Assembly: GCA_965221165.1 (NCBI GenBank)
Contig: CBDCRP010000003.1
Location: 192,001 to 256,000, forward strand
DNA from: a bacterium
Lineage (GTDB): Bacteria; UBA8248
Reading direction: 5' to 3'
DNA: 64,000 nt
This document shows positions 7,448 to 22,781 of this stretch, piece after piece. Numbering within the stretch: position 1 is the first letter of the stretch; each line of letters opens with the position of its first letter. The position numbers were made by a program, and so were the translations under genes. The notes under the pieces were generated by a model. That model worked only from the letters and a program-made list of their open reading frames with translations, ran no database searches and was not told where the DNA came from.

Positions 7448-8641
7448 CTACTCATTTTTTTTCTTTTCAGGAGATAATTTCTTTATGTTCTTGCCTTTCC
7501 GCTCTTGTTTCTGTTTCGTGATGGATGGCGTTTCACTCCCAAGAAGATAATACACGCTATCCTTGTAGGTGGCAAAGATCATCAAACCGATGAGCAAGAC
7601 GGTGCCCACTTGCATGGCCATCTCCCGGATTCTCAAACTAATGGGCCTACCTCTCAAACCTTCAATGAGCAAGAAAAGAATGTGCCCTCCATCGAGAACC
7701 GGGATTGGCAACAGGTTCAGAATCGCCAAATTCACGCTGAGCAAAATCGTGAACATGATGAGGTAGCGGAACCCGCGTTGCGCTTGTTCCGCAGCCACTA
7801 CGGAAATACGAATCGGCCCGCCGATATCCGCAGGAATCGTTTTCGTGAGCATCGAATATAGTGTAAAGACCGTTAAGCTGACGATGCGGTAGTTTTGCTC
7901 GAATCCCTTCCCCAAGGACTCAATGAATCCAAAACGCTCGGTATGGGTGCCTTGGCCGATACTGATGCCAATGCGACCGTAACCCAACTCCTGGCCCGTC
8001 GCGCTCTTCGATGTCGGGATAATGGGCGTTTCAAAAGATTTGCGGCCGCGCTCCACTTTCAACACGAGTTTTCTATCAGCATTTTTTCGTACAATTTCGA
8101 CAAGCTCGGACCATTTTTGAATCGGCCTCCCGTCAATAGCCACGATATGATCGCCGGTTTGCAGGTTCGCCTTTTGCGCCGGCGTGCCAGGCAAAACACC
8201 GCCCACCCACGTTCCCGGCACGGGAATGCCACCCAGGTGCAGTCCCCAACTCAGGAGTATCGCCAGGACGATATTAAAGAAAGGCCCTGCCGAAATGACC
8301 GCCAATCTATGGCTCACGGGGCGCAGATAAAAAGATTTTTCCGGTTCATCCGGCTCTTTGGGCACATCGGGATCATCAGGTTGCGCTTCGGGGTCTTCGC
8401 CTACGAGCTTCACATAGCCACCCAAAGGGATGAGCGACACGCGATACTCCGTCTCTCCGCGCTCAAAACCCCAGATGCGACGGCCAAAACCTAAAGAAAA
8501 CGTAGTGACGCCGATTTTGAGCCATTTGGCCACGAGATGGTGACCCAATTCGTGGATGAAAATGAGTAAACCCAAGACAAGCACGGCCCAGAAAATCGTC
8601 TGTCCGAAACCCATCACCCAGTTTATGATTTGCATCGTCAT
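7448..8641 (-). CDS. rseP: RIP intramembrane metalloprotease RseP (site-2 protease)
   Basis: HELGH, IPLGGYVK, AGPFFN, one PDZ-like domain, NLLPIPVLDGG. Confidence 0.95.
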   Translation of the reverse strand: MTMQIINWVMGFGQTIFWAVLVLGLLIFIHELGHHLVAKWLKIGVTTFSLGFGRRIWGFERGETEYRVSLIPLGGYVKLVGEDPEAQPDDPDVPKEPDEPEKSFYLRPVSHRLAVISAGPFFNIVLAILLSWGLHLGGIPVPGTWVGGVLPGTPAQKANLQTGDHIVAIDGRPIQKWSELVEIVRKNADRKLVLKVERGRKSFETPIIPTSKSATGQELGYGRIGISIGQGTHTERFGFIESLGKGFEQNYRIVSLTVFTLYSMLTKTIPADIGGPIRISVVAAEQAQRGFRYLIMFTILLSVNLAILNLLPIPVLDGGHILFLLIEGLRGRPISLRIREMAMQVGTVLLIGLMIFATYKDSVYYLLGSETPSITKQKQERKGKNIKKLSPEKKKNE

Positions 8642-8659
8642 TCTCGAATGAATCCTTAT

Positions 8660-9403
8660 TTATTGCCGGTCGCTGTGGGCCGGCATTTGGATAACTTCCA
8701 CATTCGGCGGCACGACAAACTCAAATTCCTCTTCTGCAATTCTGACGTCTTCTCGCACATCTGAAAAACGCAAATGACTCTTGTTGCCGACGTTATCAAT
8801 ATACGCCAACGTGAGGATTGTGAAATTCTCAGGCTCCACTTCTATCCACATTCGGCGAAAAGAGGGCCCTGGAGACTTGGGCTCCAAGCGAATGCGGTGG
8901 GGCTGACCAGCCCGCCAGATTCCTCCGCTTCGTCTCGCAATTCCAACTTCTTCCACCAAAACATGAAAATTCTCCTTCAGATCCCCCTTGCCTGCCAAGA
9001 ATAACAAAGGAGTGGCACTAAACCCAAGGCGCCCGGTTTTGGAAACCATCACTTGTTTGAAGCGGGCCGTGTAGATCCAAAACGTACGACCATCAGAAAC
9101 CAGAACCTGATTTTCGGGCTTCAGATACTCCATGCGCAATTTGCCCGGTTTCTTCAACAGGAGGCTCCCGCTCGACGTCGTTGTTCGCCCAAGGGATTTC
9201 AATTCATTTTTTTGCTCGAAAGAGGCTTGCAGGGATTCCAGGGCCTCATATTTTTTCTGGAGAGCCGTGATTATTCTCCCCGTCTTCAGACGTGATTCTT
9301 CCTCCACCGGCGCACAAAAAACGGTGGCTTCAAAAAACGCGAAAAACGAAAACCCGAATACCAGCATCAAAAAAATCGATTTGCTCAAAACTCTGGTTAT
9401 CAT
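8660..9403 (-). CDS. lolA: Outer-membrane lipoprotein carrier LolA-family protein
   Basis: Signal peptide; SLQASFEQ, KKPGKLRMEY..PENQVLVSDG, C-terminal FEFVVPPNVEVI. Confidence 0.85.
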   Translation of the reverse strand: MITRVLSKSIFLMLVFGFSFFAFFEATVFCAPVEEESRLKTGRIITALQKKYEALESLQASFEQKNELKSLGRTTTSSGSLLLKKPGKLRMEYLKPENQVLVSDGRTFWIYTARFKQVMVSKTGRLGFSATPLLFLAGKGDLKENFHVLVEEVGIARRSGGIWRAGQPHRIRLEPKSPGPSFRRMWIEVEPENFTILTLAYIDNVGNKSHLRFSDVREDVRIAEEEFEFVVPPNVEVIQMPAHSDRQ

Positions 9404-9412
9404 TATGAATTA

Positions 9413-10066
9413 CTACTCCGAAACGGGCGAGATGAAACCGCTATTACCCCCAAAAACGTCTCCTGCATATTCCACAACGCCACCAATGCAGCGAACGCTC
9501 CCCTCGGCAATGAGACGCACCGCAAGCGGGTATATGCGGTGTTCATAACCGAGAATTCTCTCCGAAAGTTTTTTTTCATCATCATGGGGAAACACCGGCA
9601 CGGCGGCTTGTAAAATGACTGGCCCTGTATCCACCCCCTCGTCCACAAAGTGGACCGTGCAGCCCGTCACCCTCACGCCGGCATCCAAGGCCTTTTTTTG
9701 CGCGTGAAGACCAGGAAAACTCGGCAAAAGCGAAGGATGAATGTTGATGATTCTTCCCGAGAAACGGCTCACGAACTTTGGGGGTAAAATGCGCATGAAA
9801 CCAGCGCAACAGATGAGCTCGATTCCACAACTTTCGAGCTCATCACCCATCTTCAGATAAAAACCATCCTCTTCGGGCGCTACGTGCCGATGTTCTATTC
9901 CCGCCGCCGAAGCGCGCTCGAGCGCATACGCCTTTTTTTTGTCGCTCAACACCAGTGCGACTTCCGCCGGGAAATCCGGATTCCCTCCCGCATCAATGAG
10001 GGCTTGTAAGTTCGAGCCACGTCCCGACGCCAAAACACCCACGCGCAATCGTGTTCTTCGAGACAA
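9413..10066 (-). CDS. purN: Phosphoribosylglycinamide formyltransferase
   Basis: SGRGSNLQA, AGFMRIL, NIHPSLLPSFPG, GCTVHFVDEGVDTGP. Start set at TTG 10066, just after the purM stop. Confidence 0.95.
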   Translation of the reverse strand: MSRRTRLRVGVLASGRGSNLQALIDAGGNPDFPAEVALVLSDKKKAYALERASAAGIEHRHVAPEEDGFYLKMGDELESCGIELICCAGFMRILPPKFVSRFSGRIINIHPSLLPSFPGLHAQKKALDAGVRVTGCTVHFVDEGVDTGPVILQAAVPVFPHDDEKKLSERILGYEHRIYPLAVRLIAEGSVRCIGGVVEYAGDVFGGNSGFISPVSE

Positions 10067-10068
10067 TG

Positions 10069-11121
10069 TTATACGCCCTCGATGACGACGGAGTGGCCAC
10101 CTTTCGGTCCCTTGGTGACCTCGCCGACAACCATGGCTTCTTCGCCCGTATTTTTCAAACATTCAAGCAAAGATTCGGCCCGCTCCTCTCTCACGAGAAA
10201 GACAAGGCCCAAACCCATATTGAAAGTGCGATACATCTCCGCGCTCTCAACCGGGCCAATCTCTTGAATCAATGGAAAAATTTTCGGCACAGGCCATTTC
10301 CCGGGATACAATTTGGCTTGCAAATCATCCGGAACCAGACGGCTCACATTTCCTGGAAGACCGCCTCCCGTGATGTGCGCGATTCCGCTTAGCCCCTCTT
10401 CCCCTCTGGCGGAGCGCACCGCTTTGGCGTAAATCCGGGTCGGCTCCAATAAAACATCTTCAATGGGAGCGCCCAGCCTTCGCGCCGCTGCATCTCGTTT
10501 TTCTTTTGATTCAAATATCTTCCGCACGAGGGAATAGCCGTTGCTATGGATTCCCGAGGAAGGCAGCGCGAGAATAATATCGCCTGCTTCCACAGGTGTT
10601 CTATCGTTCAATCGCTTTCGTTCAACCACACCCACTGCGAATCCCGCGAGGTCATATGCGCCCGAGCCGTACATGTCGGGCATCTCGGCCGTCTCGCCCC
10701 CGAGGAGGGCGCACCCAGCCTCCCGACAACCCCGGGCAATGCCGGATACGACATCCGTCAGTACGTTTTGGTCAATCTTGCCCGTTGCAATGTAGTCCAG
10801 GAAAAAAAGAGGTTCCGCTCCCGTGGTCAAGATGTCGTTGACGCACATGGCCACCAAGTCAACACCAACGGAACCATGACGCCGGAACTCCTGGGCCAGG
10901 AGCAATTTCGTGCCGACGCCGTCGGCGCCTGAAACGAGTACAGGGTCTTTATAATCCCCGCCGAGGCGGAACAAACCCGCAAAATCCCCCGTCCCTTTCA
11001 GGATACGGCCACTTTGACTCTCATGGGTGGATCTTACGGCTTGGGCAATGGAGCGAACGAAACTCTCGCCCAAATCCACATCGACGCCCGCTCCGCTATA
11101 TGTCAAACGATGGTCACTCAA
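10069..11121 (-). CDS. purM: Phosphoribosylformylglycinamidine cyclo-ligase (AIR synthase)
   Basis: YSGAGVDVD, DGVGTK, VAMCVND, GGETAEMP, SSGIHSNGYS, HITGGG, TFNMGLG. Confidence 0.97.
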   Translation of the reverse strand: MSDHRLTYSGAGVDVDLGESFVRSIAQAVRSTHESQSGRILKGTGDFAGLFRLGGDYKDPVLVSGADGVGTKLLLAQEFRRHGSVGVDLVAMCVNDILTTGAEPLFFLDYIATGKIDQNVLTDVVSGIARGCREAGCALLGGETAEMPDMYGSGAYDLAGFAVGVVERKRLNDRTPVEAGDIILALPSSGIHSNGYSLVRKIFESKEKRDAAARRLGAPIEDVLLEPTRIYAKAVRSARGEEGLSGIAHITGGGLPGNVSRLVPDDLQAKLYPGKWPVPKIFPLIQEIGPVESAEMYRTFNMGLGLVFLVREERAESLLECLKNTGEEAMVVGEVTKGPKGGHSVVIEGV

Positions 11122-11172
11122 AAGCGATGTTCCATGATCTAGTAGGCGGAATCACTCGGAAAGAATTTAAAA

Positions 11173-13305
11173 TCAGGCATGGACTTCCATCAATTTTTTG
11201 ACCAAGGCGACATTATGCCGGTGACCGCTTCTCTCGGCGGTCACTTTTCCTCGAACAGGACGACCGGTTAGATACAGGTCCCCTATCACGTCAAGAATTT
11301 TATGGCGAACGAACTCGTTGGGAAACCGCAATTGGGTATTCACGATACGCGCCTTGTCCACAAGAATGACGTTGTCCCAACGACCGCCCTCGGCCAGGCC
11401 CATTTCCTCGAGCGACTCCAATTCAGAGACAAAGCCAAACGTACGGGCCGGCGCGATTTCTTCCTGAAAACTCAACGCATTTTTATGTTCATACAAGTAG
11501 GATTGCTTCCCGATCGGCCGGGGATAATCGATGAGGTATGAAACCGAAAAAGAATCCGACGGCTCAATGCGAATATAACCCCTTTCATCGCCTGGCTCAC
11601 CTACTTCATAAATTTTATCTACCCATAATTCCTCGCGTTTTTCCTTTTGATCCTCGATTCCCGCTTCTTCAAGCAAGCGACAAAATTCCACCGCCGAACC
11701 ATCCATGACGGGTACTTCCTCACTTATTTTAACGAGGGCATTACTTATCTTATATGCGTGCAAAGCGCTCATGAGATGTTCTATCGTTCGGGCTGTCACT
11801 GCCCCATTGCGCAAGTTCGTCGCATGATTGGTACTATCCACGAAATCGACATTCGCCCTCACGGTCTCGGAACTCGTCAAGCTGCCGAAATGAATCCCGC
11901 TCCCCGGCGGCAAGGGCTCAATTATCATTCCGGTTTTCAGGCCGGAATGAAGCCCCCGTCCATACAACACGACACTCTTCGAGATACTCCGTTGATTTGA
12001 TTCCTTGAGGGTCGCCGGCGCCGGTGATACGGGCTCTATCTTGTATGTTTGAATTTTTCGGTTTAAGGCGGATTCCGTCATACCCACGGCTTGAGCCGTC
12101 TTGCCAATATCCCAACCATGTTCCTCCAAATGGAAAGAAAGATACTGTCTCTCCCATTGGGTTCTGGCCGCATTAAAATTCGAAGGTGCGTCGTTTCCGG
12201 ATGCGTCCGCCTCGAAGGCAGAAACTTCGCGTATCGCATATGGCAAGTGACCGATGCGAATCTCCGCTCCAGGCGACGTATCGGCGGCTTTGGTTACCAC
12301 GCCTTTTAGTTCAGCGATATTGCCTGGCCAGTCGTATTCCTCCAGAAGCGCAATGACATCTTCTGAGAATTCCTTTTTGTTCCTGCTGGCTTCAATGTAT
12401 TCATTCAAAAATTTGTTCGCCAGCGGCGAAATATCTTCTTTGCGTTCGCGCAAAGGTGGCAGGTGTAATACATCGGCATCTATTTTTCCGGACAGAGATC
12501 GCACGTAGGCCTTGTCTTTCGGAGTTCCCATATGATCAACGGATACCATCAATCGTGTCGAATCCTTTGTATGCTTCAGGAATAGAGCAAGAAATTCCTC
12601 GCGCTCCACGATGGGCAACTGCTCCAGGCCATCAAGGTATACCGTCCCCAGAAAAGCAGGGGGGACCAACCGCTCCAGCGTCTCTTCCCATTCGTTTTTT
12701 CGCAGCATCGGGAACAAGGGGCGACAATGAACCGGCCTGAAGCCTCCTTCTTTTCTGGTACCGTTCTCGTGAATCACCCTTGCAATGAAACGCTTGCCGG
12801 TTCCCCTTTCACCTGCAATCATCAAGGGACCAAGATTTTTCGCCGTTCTCCTGATGGCTCGTTGAACCTTTTGAATGCTTTTACTCGCGCCATCAAGCAT
12901 CACATCAACGACATCATTCCCCTGTAGTTCCTTGGCCCTTCGCGCTTGAACAGCAGAGCCGACTATGCGCAAAACCGTGTCAATGGAGAGGGGTTTTTCA
13001 ATAAAATTGAAAGCGCCCAGCTTTGTTGCGGCGACGGCGGTTTCAATATTGCCATGGCCCGACATCAGGACGACTTCGATATCCGCGTTGGACTCTTTCA
13101 CCGCTTGCAAGGTTTTGATTCCATCAATTCCCGGCATCCATACATCGACCAAGACCACATCCGGGGTTTCGGTTCGAACCAACTGAAGCGCAGTTTCTCC
13201 GGACTCGGCTCGCTCCACACGATACCCCTCATCGTGCAAAACATCTTCCAGGCTCGTGAGTATTTCGCGCTCATCATCGACGATGAGGACATGTCCCTTA
13301 TCCAA
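11173..13305 (-). CDS. lpxC: Fusion: NtrX-like response regulator (REC + degenerate sigma54-type AAA+ + Fis-type HTH) joined to LpxC (UDP-3-O-acyl-GlcNAc deacetylase)
   Basis: One 710-aa ORF. REC with D10/D11, D54 (DVWMP), S82, K104 and NtrX-type SGHGNIETAV; AAA+ remnants GERGTGK, LPPLRERKEDI, WPGN; HTH (KTAQAVGMTESALNRKI); from ~aa 438 LpxC motifs QRSI..V...GRGLHSG, TIEHLMSAL, PVMDGSA, IAPARTFGF, RHKILDVIGDL, SGH. Confidence 0.93.
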   Translation of the reverse strand: MDKGHVLIVDDEREILTSLEDVLHDEGYRVERAESGETALQLVRTETPDVVLVDVWMPGIDGIKTLQAVKESNADIEVVLMSGHGNIETAVAATKLGAFNFIEKPLSIDTVLRIVGSAVQARRAKELQGNDVVDVMLDGASKSIQKVQRAIRRTAKNLGPLMIAGERGTGKRFIARVIHENGTRKEGGFRPVHCRPLFPMLRKNEWEETLERLVPPAFLGTVYLDGLEQLPIVEREEFLALFLKHTKDSTRLMVSVDHMGTPKDKAYVRSLSGKIDADVLHLPPLRERKEDISPLANKFLNEYIEASRNKKEFSEDVIALLEEYDWPGNIAELKGVVTKAADTSPGAEIRIGHLPYAIREVSAFEADASGNDAPSNFNAARTQWERQYLSFHLEEHGWDIGKTAQAVGMTESALNRKIQTYKIEPVSPAPATLKESNQRSISKSVVLYGRGLHSGLKTGMIIEPLPPGSGIHFGSLTSSETVRANVDFVDSTNHATNLRNGAVTARTIEHLMSALHAYKISNALVKISEEVPVMDGSAVEFCRLLEEAGIEDQKEKREELWVDKIYEVGEPGDERGYIRIEPSDSFSVSYLIDYPRPIGKQSYLYEHKNALSFQEEIAPARTFGFVSELESLEEMGLAEGGRWDNVILVDKARIVNTQLRFPNEFVRHKILDVIGDLYLTGRPVRGKVTAERSGHRHNVALVKKLMEVHA

Positions 13306-15562
13306 TGGAGGCCGTCCTTTGCTTTCCAGGCGTAATGTCCGCAGTACCTGCCAGTGGCAACGTTACGCGAAAAACAGAACCCGCCGGGTGGTTGTCTCGC
13401 ACGCCTATCGTTCCATTATGGTCTGCCACAATGCGATGACATATAGCCAAACCCAAACCGGAGCCCCTGTTTTTCGTGGAAAAGTAAGGCGAGAATATAT
13501 GGCCTTTCATATCTTCCGATATACCCTGCCCTTGGTCGGCAACTTCAACAAGTATCATGTTTCTGTCCTTATCGCTCCATGCTTGTAAATCTATCTCACC
13601 TTCAACCTCTTGGGATTCGAAAGCGTTTTCCAGCAAATTGATGAATACGCGCTGCAACTGCTCGGGATCCGCCATTACAGCCGCATTCTCCGCATCGATG
13701 TGAATGGAAAATTTCATATTCCCCTTCCTGCCGCGATATAAATTCACAACATCCTCAATGAGAGCAACAAAACCGCAAAGCCTTAAGCGGGGTTCCGGCA
13801 TTCGCGCGAAGCTACTGAATTCATTTACCATTTCAATCAGACTCGTCACTTGATTGATGATGGTATCCGTGCAAGATTCAAATACATCTGCAAAATCATA
13901 TGCGTCACTTTCGAATTTCCTTCTCATCCTCTGTGCGGAGAGTTGAATAGGTGTCAGCGGATTTTTGATCTCATGCGCGATGCCCCGGGCCACTTCCTGC
14001 CATGCGGCCACTTTTTGAGCCCGTATCAGAGCCGTCATATCGTCAAATACGATGACAGCGCCGAGCCTGCCGCCATCCCCGCTTCTCAGTAGAGTCAAAC
14101 TGGCTCGTAGCGTCAGTACGCGGCCATCAATCATTACCTCCACCTGCTCCGAAGCGCTTTGATTCTCTCGGCCTCTCATAGAGCGCATCAACTGGCGAAT
14201 GGGCTCGAGCTGCGCACTGTCAAAAACCTCGCTGAACATTCGCCCAATGGCGTTCTGTGGTTCAGCGTTCAACAGTTCTCCAGCCGCTTTGTTGAGGATG
14301 GTGACGCGTCCCCGGCGGTTGATGGATATCACGCCGGCGCCGATATTTTCGAGCATCGCTTCCATATATCTGCGTCTTCTGTCAATTTCCAAGTTGGTGC
14401 GGCGCAGAGTCTCGGAGGACTCTTCGATTTTCTCCTTGTTGGCCGACAATTCTTCCGTCATGCTGTTGAATGCGCTAACCAATATCCCGACCTCGCCATC
14501 CGCTTGCGCGTCCACGCGATGTTCGAGATCGCCATCCGATACCGCTCTGGTGGCTTCCGCCAATTTTTCGATGGGAACCGTGATCCCGCGAGCCAGGTAG
14601 AGGCCAAACCATATGGCGGCGAACAGGATGAGCAGCGTAACCACCAGAAAAGTGATGATATAGTTGGCTTTGATGGGATTTTTCGAGAGTTCCAGTTCTT
14701 TATAACTCACAAAGGAATCCGATATGCCTCTTATCTTCTCAACGAGCCGATAAGACACATTTTTGGATACGACGATGAACCCCACTATTTTTTTTCCAAC
14801 CTTCAAGGGCGCTACACCATGTATGACATCGCCTTTTTCCCAATTCTCCACGCTTGAGCGCGATTCCCCGTCAATCACCTGATCTATGTATCCCACCAAA
14901 GGCGAGAACTTCACGGCCTCCGCCAAACCCGGACGCTTGACCGATACGATCTCCTTTCGATCCTTATCGTAGAGTAGGATGAAATCTACGCCCAAACTCT
15001 TTCGCTCCGCCTCCAATGTTTTTTCAATCGTTTTGGGGTTTTCCGAAATACCGGGGTACTTCTTTTCCAGCATAAGCGCCAGTCGGCTTGCACTGAACAG
15101 CGCGTTTCTCTCCACCTCGCGATAATAGGTCTGGGCTACTTCGAACGATCCCTTGAGCGCGCGCTCCACATTCATGTTGAACAAGGCGTTAAAACTTTGG
15201 TTAATCAAGCCGCTGGCCACCACAAAAAGAGCCACAACCGGGATCAGCGTAAATCCGACAAAAGCCAATATGAGTTTTAATTGCAAGCGTGAACGACCGA
15301 TGCCCGCTCTTCCCTCGTAATAAAGGCGCGCCAGGTTCTTCGCCACCAGGAGGATAACCACCATGAGGAGAATGATGCTCAGGTTCACGAGCGCAAATAC
15401 AACCACATTGTTCAGCAGAGGGACTCCCGGCTCGAGTTCCTTGAAGTAAATCCAAGCCGTAAACGAAAGAGTCGCAATGGCGATCAAAGCGATAAAAGAG
15501 CGCAGGAGTGTCTTTCGTCGGCGTGCAGAAATTTCTTCCTGGTTCAGGTGCTTTGGATACAC
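13298..15562 (-). CDS. ntrY: NtrY-like membrane sensor histidine kinase (TM-periplasmic-HAMP-PAS-HisKA-HATPase)
   Basis: Multiple N-terminal TMs, HAMP (ITVPIEKLAEAT..VSDGDL...FNSMT), PAS, H-box AWQEVARGIAHEIKNPLTPIQLSAQR, N/G boxes NLLENA, DQGQG, FSTK, GSGLGL; 8-nt overlap with the regulator-LpxC gene. Confidence 0.9.
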   Translation of the reverse strand: MYPKHLNQEEISARRRKTLLRSFIALIAIATLSFTAWIYFKELEPGVPLLNNVVVFALVNLSIILLMVVILLVAKNLARLYYEGRAGIGRSRLQLKLILAFVGFTLIPVVALFVVASGLINQSFNALFNMNVERALKGSFEVAQTYYREVERNALFSASRLALMLEKKYPGISENPKTIEKTLEAERKSLGVDFILLYDKDRKEIVSVKRPGLAEAVKFSPLVGYIDQVIDGESRSSVENWEKGDVIHGVAPLKVGKKIVGFIVVSKNVSYRLVEKIRGISDSFVSYKELELSKNPIKANYIITFLVVTLLILFAAIWFGLYLARGITVPIEKLAEATRAVSDGDLEHRVDAQADGEVGILVSAFNSMTEELSANKEKIEESSETLRRTNLEIDRRRRYMEAMLENIGAGVISINRRGRVTILNKAAGELLNAEPQNAIGRMFSEVFDSAQLEPIRQLMRSMRGRENQSASEQVEVMIDGRVLTLRASLTLLRSGDGGRLGAVIVFDDMTALIRAQKVAAWQEVARGIAHEIKNPLTPIQLSAQRMRRKFESDAYDFADVFESCTDTIINQVTSLIEMVNEFSSFARMPEPRLRLCGFVALIEDVVNLYRGRKGNMKFSIHIDAENAAVMADPEQLQRVFINLLENAFESQEVEGEIDLQAWSDKDRNMILVEVADQGQGISEDMKGHIFSPYFSTKNRGSGLGLAICHRIVADHNGTIGVRDNHPAGSVFRVTLPLAGTADITPGKQRTASIG

Positions 15563-15565
15563 GAC

Positions 15566-16171
15566 TCACATTCCTTTAGAACCAAATGTGTCCGAATGGC
15601 TCCAATCAGAGTTTTCCCCCCAAAAAGCGAGTAAGTAATTGAAGGGAAAAACAAAATCCACATGATTCAACCGCGCTCTGATTTTGACATAATATTCACT
15701 GTTTTGGGACAACGCTTTGCCGGAAACAATGGGCGCGCCGTTCAATTCGCGCATCCAGTCCATCATCTCACCTTCGCTCTTGGTCACTTTTCTCTCAATG
15801 TCTTTCGCATCTTCTTTGATAAGAAAAGTGTAGGTTTTTTTCAGCGCGCTATATTTCACCTGGTGATGAAATTGCCGTGAGGAGACTTCCAAGTCATAGA
15901 TCAGCTTGCGGGAACGGAGGAGACTTACATCAAAGATGAACTTGGTCGTCACACCACTATGGATGGCTTCCAACAGTTTTGGCGAAAACGCACCCAATAG
16001 TGAACCAAAAACAAGCAACTCTCCATTCTTCTCAACAACGATGACATCTTTTATTCGAATTTCATCCGGGTCGTCCGTTGCGGAGAGCGCCGGACCCGCC
16101 AGAACGAAGAACCCGCAGATGGCTATGATTAACTTCCTCAGAACAAATGTTTTCTTGGCGTCAGATAACAT
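15566..16171 (-). CDS. Exported protein, DUF4390-like
   Basis: Signal-peptide-like N-terminus; L.EAIHSGV...F.F.V.L, VKY..LKKTY, YYVKIRA pattern; position directly upstream of ntrY-ntrX is typical of DUF4390. Confidence 0.7.
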   Translation of the reverse strand: MLSDAKKTFVLRKLIIAICGFFVLAGPALSATDDPDEIRIKDVIVVEKNGELLVFGSLLGAFSPKLLEAIHSGVTTKFIFDVSLLRSRKLIYDLEVSSRQFHHQVKYSALKKTYTFLIKEDAKDIERKVTKSEGEMMDWMRELNGAPIVSGKALSQNSEYYVKIRARLNHVDFVFPFNYLLAFWGENSDWSHSDTFGSKGM

Positions 16172-16196
16172 AAGTTCCCCTCATCCTTTAAGCTCA

Positions 16197-16225
16197 ATGC
16201 TACCGGATAAGATAAAAGCCCTCAA
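16197..16225 (-). promoter_or_regulatory. Putative sigma70 promoter for the DUF4390-ntrY-ntrX/lpxC unit
   Basis: TTGAGG-N17-TAGCAT on the minus strand, ~25 nt upstream of the ATG at 16171. Confidence 0.45.
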
Positions 16226-16305
16226 TCCCTCTTTTGCTTCCCTGTCCTCTCGCTTTTATTCACCAAACGCAACCAGATGCACGCCGGGGTCTCCAGGCGT
16301 CTTTC

Positions 16306-18987
16306 TTACTCTTCTCCACTCTCCATGAGCTTTCGTAGTTCATATAGAGCTTCGAGGGCTTGGCGAGGCGTCATGGCATTCGGGTCGAGATTTTTCAACG
16401 CTTCTTCGACCTGCGATTTCGCACGTGAAAACAAGGGCAATTGTCCATTTCCCCGGTTATTTTCCAAAAAAGATTTTTCCCCGCCAGAGCGGGACATAGT
16501 CTCCACATTCTCGAACTTGGACAATAGGGTCTTCGCCCGGTCTATGACCTCTCCGGGAAGTCCCGCTAGCCTTCCTACGTGAATGCCGTAGCTTCTATCG
16601 CAACTGCCATCGGTCACCTTTCGCAAAAAAACGATTTCATCGCCCCATTCACGAACTTCGACCGTCAAGTTTTTTACACAGGCGAGTTCTTTCGAGAGTT
16701 CGGCCAACTCATGGTAATGGGTCGCGAACAAGGTCCTCGCCCGGTGGCGAACCTGATTATGAAGATACTCCACAACCGACCAAGCGATGCTTACTCCATC
16801 GTAAGTGCTAGTGCCGCGTCCCACCTCATCCAACACAATAAAACTGCTCTGCGTCGCCTCTCTCAATATAGTGGCCGTCTCCACCATCTCCACCATGAAA
16901 GTGCTTTGACCCTCCAAAAGTCGGTCATGCGCGCCCACACGTGTGAACACCCTGTCGACCAAACCGATTTTCGCGCTCTTCGCGGGCACGAAGCTGCCAA
17001 TTTGCGCCATTAAAATGATGAGCGCCGATTGACGCAGGTAAGTGGATTTTCCGGCCATATTCGGCCCTGTGATGATGAGTATTTGGCGATCATCGTGAAT
17101 GAACAAATCATTCGGTACGAAGGGGACGCCAGGGTGCTGCGCCTCCATGACGGGATGCCTGCCTTCAATGATTTCCAGATCCGTAGAATCTGTTATTTCT
17201 GGTCTGACGTATCCATATTTGCGCGCAACGAGCGCCAGGGACAAAACCGCATCGAGAAGCGCTATCTTCTCCGCAGCGGCGAGTATACGCCTGGCATGTT
17301 TCGATATTTCCGCTCTCAAGCGTCCAAAGAGCATGAACTCGAGATGATGGGCTTTCTCTTCCGCGCCAAGAATATCTTCTTCCATCTTCTTCAACTCGGA
17401 AGTGATGTATCGCTCTGCGGAAACGAGGGTCTGTTTACGCGTATATTCTATCGGCACCTGCTCACTGAAGCGTTTGGTGATTTCGAGATAATACCCAAAA
17501 ACGCGATTAAAACCGATTTTCAGAGGCAGCCCGGTTCTTTCTTTTTCCTTGCTTTCATAATTCTTCAGCCACGTATCGCCCTCCCGCTGCGCCTTTCTCA
17601 ATTGAGCGAGTTCCTGGTCATATTCAGCACGAAAAATTCCACCCTCTCGAATCGAAAGTGGCGGCTCATCCACTATCGCGTTCTTCAGTTTCAACGCCAC
17701 ATCTTCGAGAGAATCCCACCCCGTCAAGACGGAGCGAAACAACCCTGAATCCGTTCCCTTTATCGCCTCACAAACCCCTGGCAACATGGCCAAAGACGCG
17801 CCGAGCCCCGCCAGGTCCCGGGCATTCGCAGTTTGAGAACCGACGCGACCGAGGAGGCGCTCGATATCCTGTATGGGCCCAATGGTGTCTTTGAGCATTG
17901 TCAGGATCTCGGAATTATCCACGAGTTCCTCTACGGATTCGGCGCGATAATCGACGGCCTCTTTTTGAATCAAAGGCGAAAGGACCCATTTTTTCAGCAG
18001 ACGTCCCCCCATGCCCGTCAGCGTCTCATCCAACAAGCCCAGCAAAGTACCCTTTTTCCCGCGAGCCACGGCAGAACGGGTGAGTTCTAAATTGCGCAAC
18101 GTGGCCGCATCGAGAATCATCGTGTCCGAGAGGCGGGAGAAAAACACCGGTTTGAGATGGGGAAAATCACCAGGCTGATTTTCTTTGAGATACGTCACGA
18201 CCCCCACGGCGGAATCCACCGCCGCCGGATTCGCCAGGAGATTCGCCTCGTCGGGAAATATGGCGTCCATGCCTTTGAAATCAAGCGGCTCATAAAAAGT
18301 AGCAGCCGGTCTTTTTTCAACATGAATGCCCAGTTCATCAAATTTGCTTTTCAACGCATCGGACGGAGAAAACGCATCCGGCAAGACGAGTTCGTGAGGA
18401 GAAAGTCTCTCCAATTGGTTGCAAATGAGCGTCTCGGCGGCGTCGCCCTCCGCCTGGGTTGCAGAAAATTCACCGGTGGAACTATCGAGCCATGCCATCC
18501 CCCAAAGCGCCTCTCCTTCTCGCATCGACACGGTGATCCCCGCCAGGTACTGGGATTCCTTGCTGTCAAGCAGTTCGAGATCGGCAATCGAGGTGCCCGG
18601 GGTCAGGACGCGCGTCACCTCTCGCCTCACAACTCCCCTGCTTTCTCCCGCATCTTCCACCTGCTCGCATATGGCGACTTTATGGCCCGCTTGCAGCAAT
18701 CGGCCGCAATAAGAGGATGCCGAATGACAAGGCACGCCGCACATCGGGATAGGCCCTTTGTCATCGCTCTGGCGCGACGTCAACGTGAGCTCCAGTATTT
18801 TCGCCCCGAGCTTTGCGTCTTCGTAGAACATCTCGAAAAAATCACCCAGTTGAAAAAACAGCATCGCATCCGGGTAGCGTCTCTTCATTTCCAGATATTG
18901 GCGCATTGCAGGAGATGGACCACGGGCCTTGGCCCCTGATGTATTTTTTTCTTTTCCGGCTCTAAGGGTGCTTCTGGGGGGAGACAT
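16306..18987 (-). CDS. mutS: DNA mismatch repair protein MutS
   Basis: PAMRQY, GDFFEMF, PMCGVP, ITGPNMAGKSTY, STFMVEM, DEVGRGTSTYDG, ATHYHEL, SYGIHV. Confidence 0.97.
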   Translation of the reverse strand: MSPPRSTLRAGKEKNTSGAKARGPSPAMRQYLEMKRRYPDAMLFFQLGDFFEMFYEDAKLGAKILELTLTSRQSDDKGPIPMCGVPCHSASSYCGRLLQAGHKVAICEQVEDAGESRGVVRREVTRVLTPGTSIADLELLDSKESQYLAGITVSMREGEALWGMAWLDSSTGEFSATQAEGDAAETLICNQLERLSPHELVLPDAFSPSDALKSKFDELGIHVEKRPAATFYEPLDFKGMDAIFPDEANLLANPAAVDSAVGVVTYLKENQPGDFPHLKPVFFSRLSDTMILDAATLRNLELTRSAVARGKKGTLLGLLDETLTGMGGRLLKKWVLSPLIQKEAVDYRAESVEELVDNSEILTMLKDTIGPIQDIERLLGRVGSQTANARDLAGLGASLAMLPGVCEAIKGTDSGLFRSVLTGWDSLEDVALKLKNAIVDEPPLSIREGGIFRAEYDQELAQLRKAQREGDTWLKNYESKEKERTGLPLKIGFNRVFGYYLEITKRFSEQVPIEYTRKQTLVSAERYITSELKKMEEDILGAEEKAHHLEFMLFGRLRAEISKHARRILAAAEKIALLDAVLSLALVARKYGYVRPEITDSTDLEIIEGRHPVMEAQHPGVPFVPNDLFIHDDRQILIITGPNMAGKSTYLRQSALIILMAQIGSFVPAKSAKIGLVDRVFTRVGAHDRLLEGQSTFMVEMVETATILREATQSSFIVLDEVGRGTSTYDGVSIAWSVVEYLHNQVRHRARTLFATHYHELAELSKELACVKNLTVEVREWGDEIVFLRKVTDGSCDRSYGIHVGRLAGLPGEVIDRAKTLLSKFENVETMSRSGGEKSFLENNRGNGQLPLFSRAKSQVEEALKNLDPNAMTPRQALEALYELRKLMESGEE

Positions 18988-18989
18988 GT

Positions 18990-19388
18990 TTACTCTGCCT
19001 TGGATTCGCGGGGAGATAGGCTCGTCTGAGGCTTGGGGTCAGTTTGCGGCGCGCGCTCATCACGCATGGATGTGGGTTCAATGGTTTCTGGATTTCCCAT
19101 CGGCAGGAGCTTGCCGCTATTCTCCCGCGCCTCATCCAGATTGCTCTCCAACGTCTTTGCTTCGCGCTTCAATTTTCCGATTTGGCTCCTGAACTTCAAG
19201 CGGTCTAATGCCCCGCCAATCCATGCCACCATGAACCCGAATGCAAACACGGCCAACAGAATGTAAAAAAGAGGCAAGTTTATGCTGCCCTGATAATAGG
19301 CAACAGTCACCGGATTCATGTTGATGACACCGAAGCTCGAAATCGCCAATGCCAGTATCAAGCCGACGATGAGTCGAAAACTGCCCAT
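18990..19388 (-). CDS. lapA: LapA (DUF1049)-like inner-membrane protein
   Basis: Two TM helices (..F...N...V.......LP....L..FAFG) followed by a basic coiled coil (RSQIGKLKREAKTLESNL). Confidence 0.7.
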   Translation of the reverse strand: MGSFRLIVGLILALAISSFGVINMNPVTVAYYQGSINLPLFYILLAVFAFGFMVAWIGGALDRLKFRSQIGKLKREAKTLESNLDEARENSGKLLPMGNPETIEPTSMRDERAPQTDPKPQTSLSPRESKAE

Positions 19389-19411: not shown

Positions 19412-19918
19412 TTAGATTTCAAAATCAGGGCGGAATTGATTGTAGGTTGTCTCTAAACTCTCGGGAATCACCCGCACGCCGCCGAGGACGGGCATCAGAT
19501 TATGATCCCCCTCCCAGCGAGGAACGATATGCATGTGCAGATGGCCGACAATTCCTGCGCCCGCGCTTCTCCCGAGATTAAAACCCACGTTGAAGCCATC
19601 GGCATTCAAGCGCTTCTTCAGTATCCCTACACATTTTTGCGATATCAAAAAAATCTCCCGGCTCTCCCCCTCATCCAAACTTTCGTAGTCCTCGAGATGG
19701 CGAATCGGCACCACCATAAGATGCCCGTTCGTATAGGGGTATTTGTTCATCACAACATACGAGCGCTCGCTCCTGTGAAGAATCAAATTCTCCTTCCCGT
19801 CTTCTTTATCCAGCAAATCACAAAAAACACAGGCCGATTCCGCCTTCCCCTCCACTTCCCCGGAATCAGAATGACTCACCACATATTCCCTGCGCCATGG
19901 CGCCCATAATCTTTCCAC
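19412..19918 (-). CDS. HIT-family hydrolase (Ap4A phosphorylase/Fhit-like)
   Basis: LWAPWR, CVFC, NKYPYTNGHLMVVP, GFNVGFNLG..AGAGI..HLHMHIVPRW. Confidence 0.9.
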   Translation of the reverse strand: MERLWAPWRREYVVSHSDSGEVEGKAESACVFCDLLDKEDGKENLILHRSERSYVVMNKYPYTNGHLMVVPIRHLEDYESLDEGESREIFLISQKCVGILKKRLNADGFNVGFNLGRSAGAGIVGHLHMHIVPRWEGDHNLMPVLGGVRVIPESLETTYNQFRPDFEI

Positions 19919-20398
19919 TCAACGATTCCCCGGCTTTTGCCGCGACAACCATCCCCCCTCAAGCAGAGAGGCTATCCTGTTTTCTTCCTTTCTCATCCGG
20001 ACGGATTCCGCCTTCGTGTAATGATCATATCCCTTTAGATGTAAAAGGCCGTGGACAAGCAGACGATCCGCCAAGACTCCGCAATCAACCGACTCCTCCT
20101 GCGCCTGGCGAAATACCTCATCGACGGAGATGACCACCTCACCCCGAAATGTCTTCCTCTCTTCTTTCTCTCCCGTCAATGCAAAAGAATCCGCCGGCGG
20201 AAAAGCCAGGACATCCGTTGTTTCGTCTTCGCCTCGATACCGGGAATTCAACGCTCGCATCCCCTCGTCTCGAATGAATGCGATGCTGAACCAGTCATCT
20301 TCGGATCGGAGAGCCTTCCGTATGACCTCCAAGCGCCGCCTCAGCGCCTTGTGATCCAGAGCGAACAGTTCTTGCTCGTTTTTGATCAGAACTTCCAT
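19919..20398 (-). CDS. ybeY: rRNA maturation endoribonuclease YbeY
   Basis: LN..YRG....TDVLAF, GEVVIS, HGLLHLKGYDH. Start moved to ATG 20398 (AAAGG RBS). Confidence 0.92.
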   Translation of the reverse strand: MEVLIKNEQELFALDHKALRRRLEVIRKALRSEDDWFSIAFIRDEGMRALNSRYRGEDETTDVLAFPPADSFALTGEKEERKTFRGEVVISVDEVFRQAQEESVDCGVLADRLLVHGLLHLKGYDHYTKAESVRMRKEENRIASLLEGGWLSRQKPGNR

Positions 20399-22781
20399 TC
20401 GCAGCGCCTTTCCTAGGAGCGTCTTCTTGTCCTGGATAATGAATCCGGTGATGATGAATACCAACCAGAACGCGCATGAAAGCATCCTGAATGTTGCTCA
20501 AATCCCTGAGCGTGAGGCTGCAATTATCCAGTTGCCCCTCCACAAAAGCACTCTGGACGATTCTATCCACCAAAGCGCTCAGACGTCCAAGGGAATGGTC
20601 CGAAAGCGAGTGCGTGGATGCCTCCACCATATCGGCCAACATCAGGATGCCTGCCTCTCTCGTCTGCGGCCTCGGCCCCGGATAGCGAAAAATCTCTTCT
20701 CTCACGTCATCCCCGTCCAGGCTCTTCGCTTTCTCGTAAAAAAATCGAATCAGGGATGTGCCATGATGTTGCTGGATTAAATCGATAATCTCTTTTGGCA
20801 GTTTGTGGCTTCTGGCGAGTTCAATACCTTCTTTCACATGGCTGACCAGGACGAGCGCGCTCATGTTGGGTTTGAGTCTGTCGTGGCGGTTTTTCGGCCC
20901 CTGGTTTTCGATAAAATACTCCGGCTTCATCATCTTGCCGATATCATGGAAATACGCACCCACGCGGGTGAGGAGCGGATTTGCCCCGATCGCCTCGGAC
21001 GCCTCCTCCGCCAGGTTCCCCACGAGGAGGCTATGGTGGTAAGTGCCCGGCGCGTTGACGACCATCTTCCTCAACAACGGATGGTTCTGGTCGGCCAGTT
21101 CCAGGAGCCGCATATCGGTCGTGAGCTTGAAAACCGACTCGAGCAGGGGCATGGCCCCCGCCACAATGATGACGTTCGAGAGACCGCCGAGCAAGGCGAT
21201 GGGAACATCGGTCCACTTCATAACCGCGGCGCCGAAACCCTCCTGCATGTTGAAACCCAGCGCGAGCGCGGCACCCAGCAGACCCAGCATGAGCGCTACT
21301 ATGAGCACGGAAGTCCTGCGCCGATATTCTTTCCAGCGAATGGCTGCGAGCACGCCGCCGGCCAGGGCGACGAGGCTGAAGTTCATGTGATTCGGCAAAA
21401 TCAATCCGGTGAGAACGGCGGAGAAAATCGCCATCAATACCGCAGATGATCGCCCCTGCAAAACGGCTGTGAGAAGAGAGGCGGAACAAAAAGGAATGAC
21501 ATAGTAAAACGAATGCAACGGGATTCCCCGGAAAGTTTCATGCAGCACCTGGGAGAAGAGAATCCCCATTTTCAGTAAAACGGCTTGGCTCAAGAGCAGT
21601 ATCATAAAAAGGGTTACGTTTTTGGGCGACGACAAAAAAGTCACGTCATACTTCTGCACGCAGACCCACGCCAAGACGAGCAGAATGAACACCACAAACG
21701 CCGTTCCCACGAAGTTGTCGAGCACGTGGCTTTGGCGGTAGATTTTCTCCAAACTTTTGAGTTTAGTGATTTGTCCTTCGTTCACCCGTTCACCCTCGCG
21801 AACGATCATCTCCCCTTGCTTGAGAATCTCGGAGACGGGCGGGACAGAGGCCGCGACTTTCTCTCTACTCTCGAGCGTCGCCCTGTTGTTGAACGTCAGC
21901 GTGGGTTGAACCATCTTCCGGACCTGGGAGATCAGCAAATCACCAATGCGCCGAGGTACTCTGCGGGATATCTTCCGGGTTTCTTGCTTGAGTAATTTAT
22001 CGACCTGTCTGAGCTCCAGGGGATTCATGGATCGGCTGACGGAGACGCGATTCCCCGTTCTAATGTCACGCGCCGTAATCCCCTTGGCCGCATGGGTGGC
22101 GTATAAGCGCTTATCACTCACGATTTGGCGCGAAAATGCCGCCTTCAACAACTTGGCGATATCCCCCCGAATCCAGTTCGCGAATCTCTCACTTCTCAGC
22201 CAGGCCGCCAGTTCCTTTGGAAGCGCGCCACCCACCAGCTTATGAAACGCGCTCTCCGCCTTGATGAAGGCAGGGGTAGCGTACATTTCCCGATAAACTT
22301 CCGACTCCGAAAAAAGCGTCCGGCTCTTTTGCTTGGCCCGTTTATTGAACTGCTCGGCTTTCACCTTCTCGAGTTCTTTGTCTATCGTCCGTTGAATGGA
22401 TTCAAATGCGCCATTCAACCTGTTGATGACAACTTGCGAGAGTTGGGTGTCGATATCGTAACGCGGCAAGACTTTTTCTCTCGCTGCCTGGCGTTTCGCG
22501 TTCGTGGCAATGGGGTCGACCACGCGCATGTCCTCAGGGGCTTTGATATCCCTGGGAACGACATCGCCCACCTCAAAAGACACGCGAGGGGCCGAAATAT
22601 CCGTTGTGAGCAGAAATGAAAGCACGGCGGCGAGCGTTCCGCCCAGAATCCACGGATAGGCCCTTGTGTTGGTAAACGCCAAGGCAGAATCCGCAATCCA
22701 TCGCCCCATCGACACACATAGACGCAAAAGGATGTTTTTGGGTTTTCCGGCCGTTTTCCCGGCGCCGGCTCGATGAATCAC
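20295..22781 (-). CDS. 7TM-HDIG membrane phosphohydrolase (PgpH-like c-di-AMP phosphodiesterase family)
   Basis: N-terminal TM, large extracytoplasmic domain, ~7 TMs, APGTYHHS, HDIG, HV..G, QHHGT, MLADMVEA; phoH-HD-ybeY synteny. Confidence 0.88.
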   Translation of the reverse strand: MIHRAGAGKTAGKPKNILLRLCVSMGRWIADSALAFTNTRAYPWILGGTLAAVLSFLLTTDISAPRVSFEVGDVVPRDIKAPEDMRVVDPIATNAKRQAAREKVLPRYDIDTQLSQVVINRLNGAFESIQRTIDKELEKVKAEQFNKRAKQKSRTLFSESEVYREMYATPAFIKAESAFHKLVGGALPKELAAWLRSERFANWIRGDIAKLLKAAFSRQIVSDKRLYATHAAKGITARDIRTGNRVSVSRSMNPLELRQVDKLLKQETRKISRRVPRRIGDLLISQVRKMVQPTLTFNNRATLESREKVAASVPPVSEILKQGEMIVREGERVNEGQITKLKSLEKIYRQSHVLDNFVGTAFVVFILLVLAWVCVQKYDVTFLSSPKNVTLFMILLLSQAVLLKMGILFSQVLHETFRGIPLHSFYYVIPFCSASLLTAVLQGRSSAVLMAIFSAVLTGLILPNHMNFSLVALAGGVLAAIRWKEYRRRTSVLIVALMLGLLGAALALGFNMQEGFGAAVMKWTDVPIALLGGLSNVIIVAGAMPLLESVFKLTTDMRLLELADQNHPLLRKMVVNAPGTYHHSLLVGNLAEEASEAIGANPLLTRVGAYFHDIGKMMKPEYFIENQGPKNRHDRLKPNMSALVLVSHVKEGIELARSHKLPKEIIDLIQQHHGTSLIRFFYEKAKSLDGDDVREEIFRYPGPRPQTREAGILMLADMVEASTHSLSDHSLGRLSALVDRIVQSAFVEGQLDNCSLTLRDLSNIQDAFMRVLVGIHHHRIHYPGQEDAPRKGAANGSSDQKRARTVRSGSQGAEAALGGHTEGSPIRR

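Follow-up and report, generated by a model that had tools for sequence, protein, structure and literature searches.

Why would a bacterium carry LpxC, the enzyme of the committed step in making lipid A, as the C-terminal part of a response regulator, and on what does the receiver of such a protein act? The question is raised by a single gene in a 64,000-nucleotide stretch of a bacterial contig (GenBank assembly GCA_965221165.1, contig CBDCRP010000003.1, positions 192,001 to 256,000 of the forward strand; GTDB lineage Bacteria; UBA8248), hereafter the window, in which a reading of the letters and their open reading frames (ORFs) had proposed an uninterrupted fusion of a response regulator with LpxC, possibly controlled by phosphorylation (hereafter, the original prediction). 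The comparative analysis makes it somewhat probable that, in this protein, the committed lipid A step is gated after translation, through Asp54 of the attached receiver, by a two-component system that senses the periplasm. The gene and the parts of its product (amino acid positions, aa) are the following:

11173 to 13305, minus strand: fused gene of an NtrX-like response regulator and LpxC; a single ORF of 710 aa plus stop, with a TTG start.
12967 to 13290, minus strand (aa 6-113): receiver (REC), Pfam Response_reg, 103 bits.
12451 to 12891, minus strand (aa 139-285): decayed sigma54-type AAA+ core, Pfam Sigma54_activ_2.
aa 139-196, within this core: partial Pfam match to Sigma54_activat (PF00158), profile positions 3-60 of 168 only.
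12211 to 12450, minus strand (aa 286-365): AAA+ lid, Pfam AAA_lid_14 (PF25601), 72.7 bits; contains LPPLRERKEDI.
12043 to 12159, minus strand (aa 383-421): Fis-type helix-turn-helix (HTH), Pfam HTH_8, 22.9 bits with a cut-off of 22.
11995 to 12042, minus strand (aa 422-437): flexible linker, ending in …IEPVSPAPATLKES N, with no stop and no conserved internal start.
11188 to 11994, minus strand (aa 438-706): LpxC domain (PF03331), 281 bits in Pfam (cut-off 27), profile positions 1-267 of 268.

In the ORF listing of the window, the frame runs through 710 codons without an internal stop, as the original prediction had claimed, and the Pfam search recovers Response_reg, the partial Sigma54_activat, HTH_8 and LpxC on one protein, in the order receiver, decayed sigma54-type AAA+ module with its lid, Fis-type HTH, linker of about 14 residues, and complete LpxC. 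Most of the details proposed at the outset hold as well: the LpxC portion, placed from 11994 down to 11173, agrees with the Pfam match and with the genome match at 11188-11994; the receiver residues D10, D11, D54, S82 and K104 are all found; the LpxC motifs TIEHL, HKILD and SGH are intact; a short linker (EPVSPAPATLKES) is seen between the HTH and LpxC; and the HTH is recognized, just over the cut-off. The AAA+-like domain is present with its Walker A motif but is decayed, with a Walker B motif that reads LDG, no GAFTGA loop and two deletions. The linker, which includes EPVSPAPATLKES, varies among the relatives and is disordered according to both the alignment and the AlphaFold2 (AF2) model of the full-length protein, in which the predicted local distance difference test score (pLDDT) falls below 50 across aa 427-433. 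The LpxC fold starts exactly at Gln438, which is invariant in the alignment, and the protein stops four residues past this fold, with no long C-terminal tail.

The fusion is not an artefact. Independent contigs from a sample that is probably the source of the assembly (two runs) cover positions 11000-13287 with no differences and no gaps. Contigs of relatives, from a different study, span the HTH-LpxC junction in frame, and their length changes there consist of two pairs of 1-nucleotide (nt) indels, with the frame restored within 6 nt; neither a stop nor an unpaired frameshift was seen across the junction, where the original prediction had asked whether one might occur. Among the best 120 matches in a protein collection clustered at 90% identity, which come from many independent contigs, all 120 belong to the LpxC family and 116 also to the receiver family. 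The database names of the fused proteins are simply LpxC or NtrX, and the public labels of the close relatives read Nitrospinota or Nitrospinae.

The fused gene is also the only lpxC that could be found. The genome (3.69 Mb in 3 contigs, 96.34% complete, 8.47% contamination) contains one LpxC locus, in answer to a check that the original prediction had proposed. In a survey of the phylum (51 genomes from 15 genera), LpxC was detected in 50 genomes, the genome without it being 93% complete, and no complete stand-alone LpxC was found in those 50, so that the proposed refutation, relatives that always have two separate genes, is contradicted. The frame is open at 646-755 aa in 35 cases (the long forms) and at 432-538 aa in 9 (the short forms), and 4 are fragments at contig ends; in addition, the long form of G011 is cut by a contig end, and that of G029, a genome of 8 Mb, lies on a contig where NtrY, LpxC and PurM are all frameshifted. 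In this last locus (L109, G029:C19:32000-37500), the frameshifts in ntrY, the fused gene and purM fall within 4 kb, which suggests errors of the assembly and not decay of the genes.

These data bear directly on the idea that the two parts exist separately in the cell, through an internal translation start, programmed cleavage of the linker, or an assembly or frameshift artefact. The disordered linker would be open to proteases, and V446 and L447 are encoded by GTG and TTG. However, an open frame is seen at all complete loci of the phylum (35 long, 9 short) as well as in hundreds of proteins from elsewhere, the linker indels of the relatives restore the frame, and the independent assembly is identical in sequence. 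There is no conserved Met at the start of LpxC, the invariant Q438 lies upstream of the only candidate starts, and no Shine-Dalgarno sequence lies at the right distance for these. We therefore consider a separation of the two parts highly improbable.

The LpxC part passes the NCBIfam lpxC equivalog model TIGR00325 (233 bits with a cut-off of 187) and aligns with the LpxC of Pseudomonas aeruginosa and other LpxC chains of solved structures (E about 1e-47), with the Glu-His, Thr-Phe, His-Lys..Asp..Asp and Ser-Gly-His motifs in place. E509/H510, T622/F623, H668/K669/D672/D676 and H695 are all present; these include what we take, from the LpxC literature, to be the zinc ligands (His, His, Asp) and the catalytic Glu and His. 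In an alignment of 129 complete fused proteins (A2; 103 long forms and 26 short or intermediate forms), E509, H510, H668, K669, D672, D676 and H695 are kept in 129/129 and T622 in 128/129, and F623 is an invariant column. Judged by these residues, the LpxC part is complete, with every catalytic residue. From its being the sole LpxC in this genome, and likewise in 50 related genomes, we infer deacetylase activity on UDP-3-O-acyl-GlcNAc.

The receiver is conserved to a similar degree in A2: of the 129 proteins, 127 keep D54, 128 keep K104 and 128 keep D11, and all have S or T at position 82. The whole N-terminal part of 420 aa aligns end to end with Brucella NtrX (5m7n, E 2e-47), the C-terminal HTH of which matches the HTH_8 of the fused protein. 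The layout is that of NtrX: a REC, an AAA+ that lacks GAFTGA and an HTH_8, with the gene placed after that of an NtrY kinase. NtrX is also the best NCBIfam model for this part (NF051870, an equivalog), but the score of 251 bits is far under the cut-off of 600, and we therefore call the regulator NtrX-like rather than NtrX.

It is the AAA+ module between receiver and HTH that departs from a functional activator. Its core keeps the Walker A sequence GERGTGK, but the LDG of Walker B lacks the glutamate, and two stretches are deleted in comparison with other members of the family. The hallmarks of a sigma54 enhancer-binding protein of the NtrC family are accordingly missing: PF00158 is matched at positions 3-60 of 168 only, Walker B is LDG and GAFTGA is absent. 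The GAFTGA loop is lacking in 18/18 aligned long forms, Walker B 'DE' occurs in only 5 of the 103 long forms, and no sigma54-type promoter scoring above 9/12 was found on the coding strand of the window between 8400 and 19500; for these reasons we regard the module as unable to act as a sigma54 activator, with both its ATPase and its sigma54-contact motifs dead. R288 of the lid is kept in 100/103 long forms. The genome does encode rpoN (sigma54), at G000:C3:185812-186288, about 6 kb before the first base of the window, despite the loss of the sigma54-contact loop from the fused regulator.

Dead motifs do not equal a dead body, and the regulator could still work on DNA. At 10 loci of the same genus, the identity ranges are 61-87% for AAA and 67-95% for HTH, against 73-93% for PurM, 71-92% for PurN, 81-97% for REC and 86-95% for LpxC. 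The AAA+ and HTH parts are thus about as conserved as PurM and PurN, which indicates that they are not decaying freely within the genus and may still bind DNA or a nucleotide. This is the ground for an uncoupled, bifunctional protein, in which the NtrX-like part would be a phospho-controlled, sigma54-independent DNA-binding regulator similar to alphaproteobacterial NtrX, LpxC would be a constitutive passenger, and the fusion would fix nothing beyond co-expression or stoichiometry. The recognizable HTH_8 and AAA lid, the end-to-end alignment with Brucella NtrX, the genus-level conservation, and a disordered linker to LpxC with no fixed packing in the AF2 models all fit such a protein.

The distribution of the middle part across the fused relatives points in another direction. 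Compared with the window protein, the other 102 long forms have a mean identity of 0.62 in REC and 0.63 in LpxC; the values fall to 0.34 in the AAA core, 0.42 in the lid and 0.43 in the HTH. In all eight short-form loci examined in the phylum, there is no AAA or HTH match, and a bare REC-LpxC protein is encoded in the same place, directly after NtrY. One of these short forms, in G025, is nested among long forms inside the window's own genus (support 99) and retains a vestige of the last HTH helix; REC-HTH-LpxC intermediates, such as P0132, exist as well. In the LpxC tree, P0125 and P0132 pair a long form with a short or intermediate one (support 100), as does the grouping of P0136 with P0137 and P0141 (support 100), and the well-supported branches altogether force at least 6-7 changes between long and short. 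Among the 26 short or intermediate forms, D54 is kept in 25 and D11, K104 and S82 in 26 each. P0136 and P0137 have degenerate receivers, with N or S in place of D54 and, in P0137, changes at D10, D11 and K104 as well, that is, a pseudo-receiver on an intact LpxC.

The middle was thus lost repeatedly, and what was left is REC-LpxC with an intact phospho-acceptor pocket, so that selection appears to keep the receiver-enzyme pair. That the receiver stays phosphorylatable even when LpxC is the only domain attached to it is the main argument that it acts on LpxC. For the uncoupled bifunctional protein, this pattern is awkward: the DNA-binding part is what disappears while the receiver stays on LpxC, in the short forms the only possible output of the receiver is LpxC or a binding partner, and co-expression hardly explains why the fusion is retained phylum-wide as the sole LpxC, because adjacent genes would do the same. 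We accordingly rate that alternative as unlikely. The signal could also flow the other way, with the LpxC domain reporting the occupancy of its substrate or product to the regulator, so that lipid A precursors would tune DNA binding or phosphatase-sensitive signalling. The tether of about 14 residues between HTH and LpxC in the long forms could allow steric coupling, and NtrYX systems regulate envelope genes in alphaproteobacteria, according to the available text of a study of these systems (PMC7240162); nevertheless, such a reversed flow is inapplicable to the REC-LpxC forms, which have no DNA-binding output, and is purely conceptual, given that no binding site or target of the regulator was identified here. 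It seems to us improbable, more so than the bifunctional protein.

In the reading that we prefer, with LpxC as the output of the receiver, a kinase would set the phosphorylation state of Asp54, and phospho-Asp54 would directly set the output of LpxC. By what physical route this might happen is a guess; most likely, the receiver itself, or receiver-driven dimerization through a long alpha-5 helix, would occlude or release the enzyme, as in CheB or PleD, the second most likely route being an effect of phosphorylation on stability, and the third, docking to the kinase that would bring LpxC to the membrane. A long receiver alpha-5 helix would suit dimerization as in NtrC-family receivers, and the helix is indeed long in both AF2 models, spanning aa 108-128 and 108-134. 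The models are confident within domains and disordered in the linkers (pLDDT 84.5 and predicted template modelling score (pTM) 0.47 for the full-length protein; 90.1 and 0.68 for the short form). A complex prediction of the receiver (aa 1-125) with LpxC (aa 437-710), each supplied with A2, gave a score of 0.01, the mark being 0.32, which counts neither for nor against an interaction. Control by Asp phosphorylation, as first proposed, is favoured by comparison, given the lost middle and D54 in 25/26, but the structure predictions gave no defined contact between receiver and LpxC.

The candidate kinase is encoded immediately upstream, next to a further gene:

15566 to 16171, minus strand: DUF4390 (PlrP-like) gene, 201 aa; PF14334, 92 bits, aa 36-191.
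13298 to 15562, minus strand: NtrY/PlrS-like sensor histidine kinase gene, 754 aa; NtrY_N, HAMP, PAS, HisKA and HATPase_c.

The TAA stop of the kinase gene overlaps the TTG start of the fused gene by 8 nt, and the two genes are, by this arrangement, predicted to be translationally coupled. The DUF4390 gene lies 3 nt from the kinase ORF, and the N-terminus of its product (MLSDAKKTFVLRKLIIAICGFFVLAGPALSA) resembles, by eye, a signal peptide; the protein is a probable periplasmic third component of the module. The gene order in the window is DUF4390, NtrY-like kinase, fused gene, purM, purN and lolA, with mutS, not rsmB, upstream of the module. Across the 14 longer loci from the phylum, NtrY was found in 13 (the 14th is cut), DUF4390 in 9, and purM, purN and lolA in all 14.

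Where did this arrangement come from? We analysed 58 loci that carry an unfused relative of the regulator (L103, with a stand-alone lpxC and no regulator nearby, was left out). In 18 of these, a stand-alone lpxC lies just upstream on the same strand, and in 15 of the 18, DUF4390 sits between them. Locus L050, for example, encodes a 313-aa LpxC, DUF4390, an NtrY-like kinase and a 454-aa regulator with a complete Sigma54_activat domain, GAFTGA, the Walker B sequence LDE and the arginine-finger motif. A sigma54 -24/-12 element, defined as at least 10 matches at 12 specified positions, was found 38-75 nt before lpxC in 10/18 loci, whereas shuffled versions of the same upstream regions reach this score in 0.4%. 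Its occurrence goes with the type of regulator, the element being present in 10 of the 12 loci where the regulator has a GAFTGA-like loop and in none of the 6 where it has not. Near-consensus sigma54 promoters head lpxC-DUF4390-ntrY-regulator clusters among the loci L047-L106; in L050, the element spans positions 1995-2010 (TGGTACGGTTATTGCT), 55 nt before the start. In a Desulfobacterales-type clade, the promoter and the GAFTGA loop of the regulator are both lost and lpxC is still adjacent.

The tree of the regulator part splits 28 fused from 55 unfused rows by one branch with support 100, with the fused rows on long branches, and the LpxC tree likewise separates the fused from the unfused forms; both trees are rooted at the midpoint only. 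The fusion may thus have had a single origin, on one branch of the regulator tree. The layout of the unfused loci appears to match, in the comparison by description, that of Desulfovibrio vulgaris, where, in the available part of the published mapping, lpxC is the single mapped target of the regulator DVU2934, and that of Syntrophobacter fumaroxidans, where lpxC adjoins an operon orthologous to the DVU2934 one (PMC3333781). On these grounds, the system in the window would be the fused counterpart of an lpxC-dedicated, sigma54-dependent two-component system that is unfused in other phyla, and control would have moved, in this lineage, from the lpxC promoter onto the enzyme itself. In its fullest form, the proposal is that the DUF4390/NtrY module phosphorylates the LpxC-attached receiver and so forms a post-translational homeostat of lipopolysaccharide (LPS), the sole means of LpxC control throughout one phylum and in lineages belonging to several more, after a sigma54 regulator dedicated to lpxC had taken its target enzyme into its own chain and later lost its DNA-binding body. 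We put this chain of events forward tentatively, at slightly less than an even chance. Neither the NtrX-like nature of the regulator with its dead ATPase module, nor the DUF4390/NtrY module, nor the sigma54 promoters at lpxC of unfused relatives were part of the original prediction.

Several points weigh against control of LpxC through its receiver or against this history. Because the trees are midpoint-rooted only, it is motif decay rather than tree polarity that speaks for a derivation from a sigma54 system, and DVU2934 was set beside the regulator by description only. The lineage of P0136 and P0137 lost D54, so that at least some of the fusions work without phosphorylation. The AF2 pTM values of 0.47 and 0.68 fix no arrangement of receiver and LpxC, and we found no experiment that bears on phospho-control of any LpxC. 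The long form of the window could possibly act as a transcription factor. Finally, the statement that the fused protein is the only LpxC of its genome is strong but not absolute because the genome is a bin with 8.47% contamination.

Fused forms are not confined to the phylum. Among the 150 best representatives at 50% identity, there are 64 LpxC proteins joined to regulator parts, 18 LpxC proteins alone and 68 regulators alone, and the fused forms from outside the phylum come from metagenome-assembled genomes labelled as several other phyla. In named genome records, long forms carry the labels Nitrospinota, Thermodesulfobacteriota and Desulfomonile; short forms, Thermoanaerobaculia, Holophagales and other Acidobacteriota, 'Deltaproteobacteria', Thermodesulfovibrionia, Desulfocapsaceae and Spirochaetota; and the REC-HTH-LpxC form, Entotheonellia. 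The best 120 relatives of the short form P0149 are labelled Spirochaetota, Thermoanaerobaculia, Deltaproteobacteria and Nitrospinales. Some of the short forms outside the phylum also follow DUF4390 and/or NtrY (L037, L043); in the flanks fetched for the Acidobacteriota short forms, no NtrY match was found, save one weak kinase match in L040.

How does this protein compare with known systems? Response regulators with enzymes as outputs are well established, namely, the CheB methylesterase and the PleD/WspR cyclases. Regulators of the RpfG type (HD-GYP) are mentioned in the available text of a preprint (bioRxiv 10.1101/2021.11.05.467447). With all these, the fused protein shares the architecture of receiver, flexible linker and enzyme, most clearly in the REC-LpxC short forms; it differs in that we found no described case with a lipid A biosynthetic enzyme, and in that the long form keeps a relic transcription-factor body in between. 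No description of an LpxC-response regulator fusion was found in the literature searched, in line with the original prediction, which knew of no characterized example. Thus, enzyme-output response regulators are known, and LpxC as such an output, or LpxC so controlled, appears in no description that we found.

The known modes of LpxC control, as given in the available text of a 2025 review of lipid A regulation, are FtsH/LapB/YejM proteolysis in Escherichia coli, MurA binding in P. aeruginosa and Lon in alphaproteobacteria, none of which employs a covalently attached receiver; the same text contains no occurrence of 'fusion', 'fused' or 'response regulator' and brings up NtrYX solely as an influence on transcription in two alphaproteobacteria (PMC12444477). 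In Rhodobacter sphaeroides, loss of NtrYX raises lpxC mRNA 8.8-fold and LPS, according to the portion of the report that was available (PMC7240162). Like alphaproteobacterial NtrX, the regulator of the window has an NtrY-like kinase (NtrY_N, HAMP, PAS, HisKA) directly upstream and no GAFTGA loop, but the decay of its AAA+ core has gone further (Walker B LDG, two deletions) and it is covalently joined to LpxC, whereas the link of NtrX to lpxC is transcriptional and reported to be indirect, with no NtrX site at lpxC.

The closest parallel to the upstream module is PlrP-PlrS-PlrR of Bordetella, in which the DUF4390 protein PlrP, described as a third component located in the periplasm, keeps the phosphatase activity of PlrS, a kinase of the NtrY family, in check; the available text of this study has no occurrence of LpxC or lipid A, and its survey covers Proteobacteria only (PMC13001219). 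Both systems have the order DUF4390, kinase, regulator, overlapping stop and start codons, and a signal-peptide-like DUF4390 N-terminus; in the window, however, mutS rather than rsmB is upstream and the regulator carries LpxC. Systems of the Plr type also have a periplasmic PDC domain in the kinase, for which the window kinase was matched to NtrY_N only. The DVU2931/DVU2934 system of D. vulgaris, compared by description, is alike in being a dedicated signalling route to lpxC, but, in the available account, acts at the promoter, unlike the window regulator, which no longer has the sigma54-contact loop and forms one protein with the enzyme (PMC3333781). Another natural fusion of LpxC, LpxC-FabZ of Bacteroidota (NF009667), has a pathway enzyme as the C-terminal partner, and the window protein scores 211 bits against the cut-off of 465 of this model, through its LpxC part only.

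Only in a few Proteobacteria is it known in detail how lipid A synthesis is balanced against that of phospholipid and cell wall; LpxC is controlled there through proteolysis, a partner protein or transcription. If the proposed control is real, a receiver wired onto LpxC would be a further and mechanistically simple mode. The relatives provide a graded natural series, from a separate lpxC under a sigma54 promoter, through the full regulator-LpxC protein and REC-HTH-LpxC, to REC-LpxC, in which one can follow, as is seldom possible, how a regulator unites with its target. The findings also support the idea that the systems of the NtrYX family, long known as 'nitrogen' regulators, basically serve to regulate the envelope or LPS.

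Some minor observations concern the surroundings of the gene. Scans of positions 8400-16500 stay at chance level, with 5 sigma70 promoters found (7.0 expected) and 12 terminators (10.5 expected). The purN ORF (9413-10162, minus strand) starts about 39 codons ahead of the formyltransferase domain and overlaps purM by 94 nt, and its real start is probably further downstream. Adjoining mutS, positions 18990-19388 (minus strand) encode a protein of 132 aa in which a LapA domain (lipopolysaccharide assembly protein A) is matched at 52 bits; in E. coli, lapA lies beside lapB. The LapB zinc ribbon PF18073 had no match in the genome, this short model being unspecific (as a control, it matched 10/14 genomes, including those of Gram-positives). 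Upstream of the LapA-like gene, positions 19412-22781 (minus strand) encode a HIT-family protein, the YbeY endoribonuclease and a 7TM-receptor HD hydrolase of 828 aa, an apparently ordinary housekeeping context.

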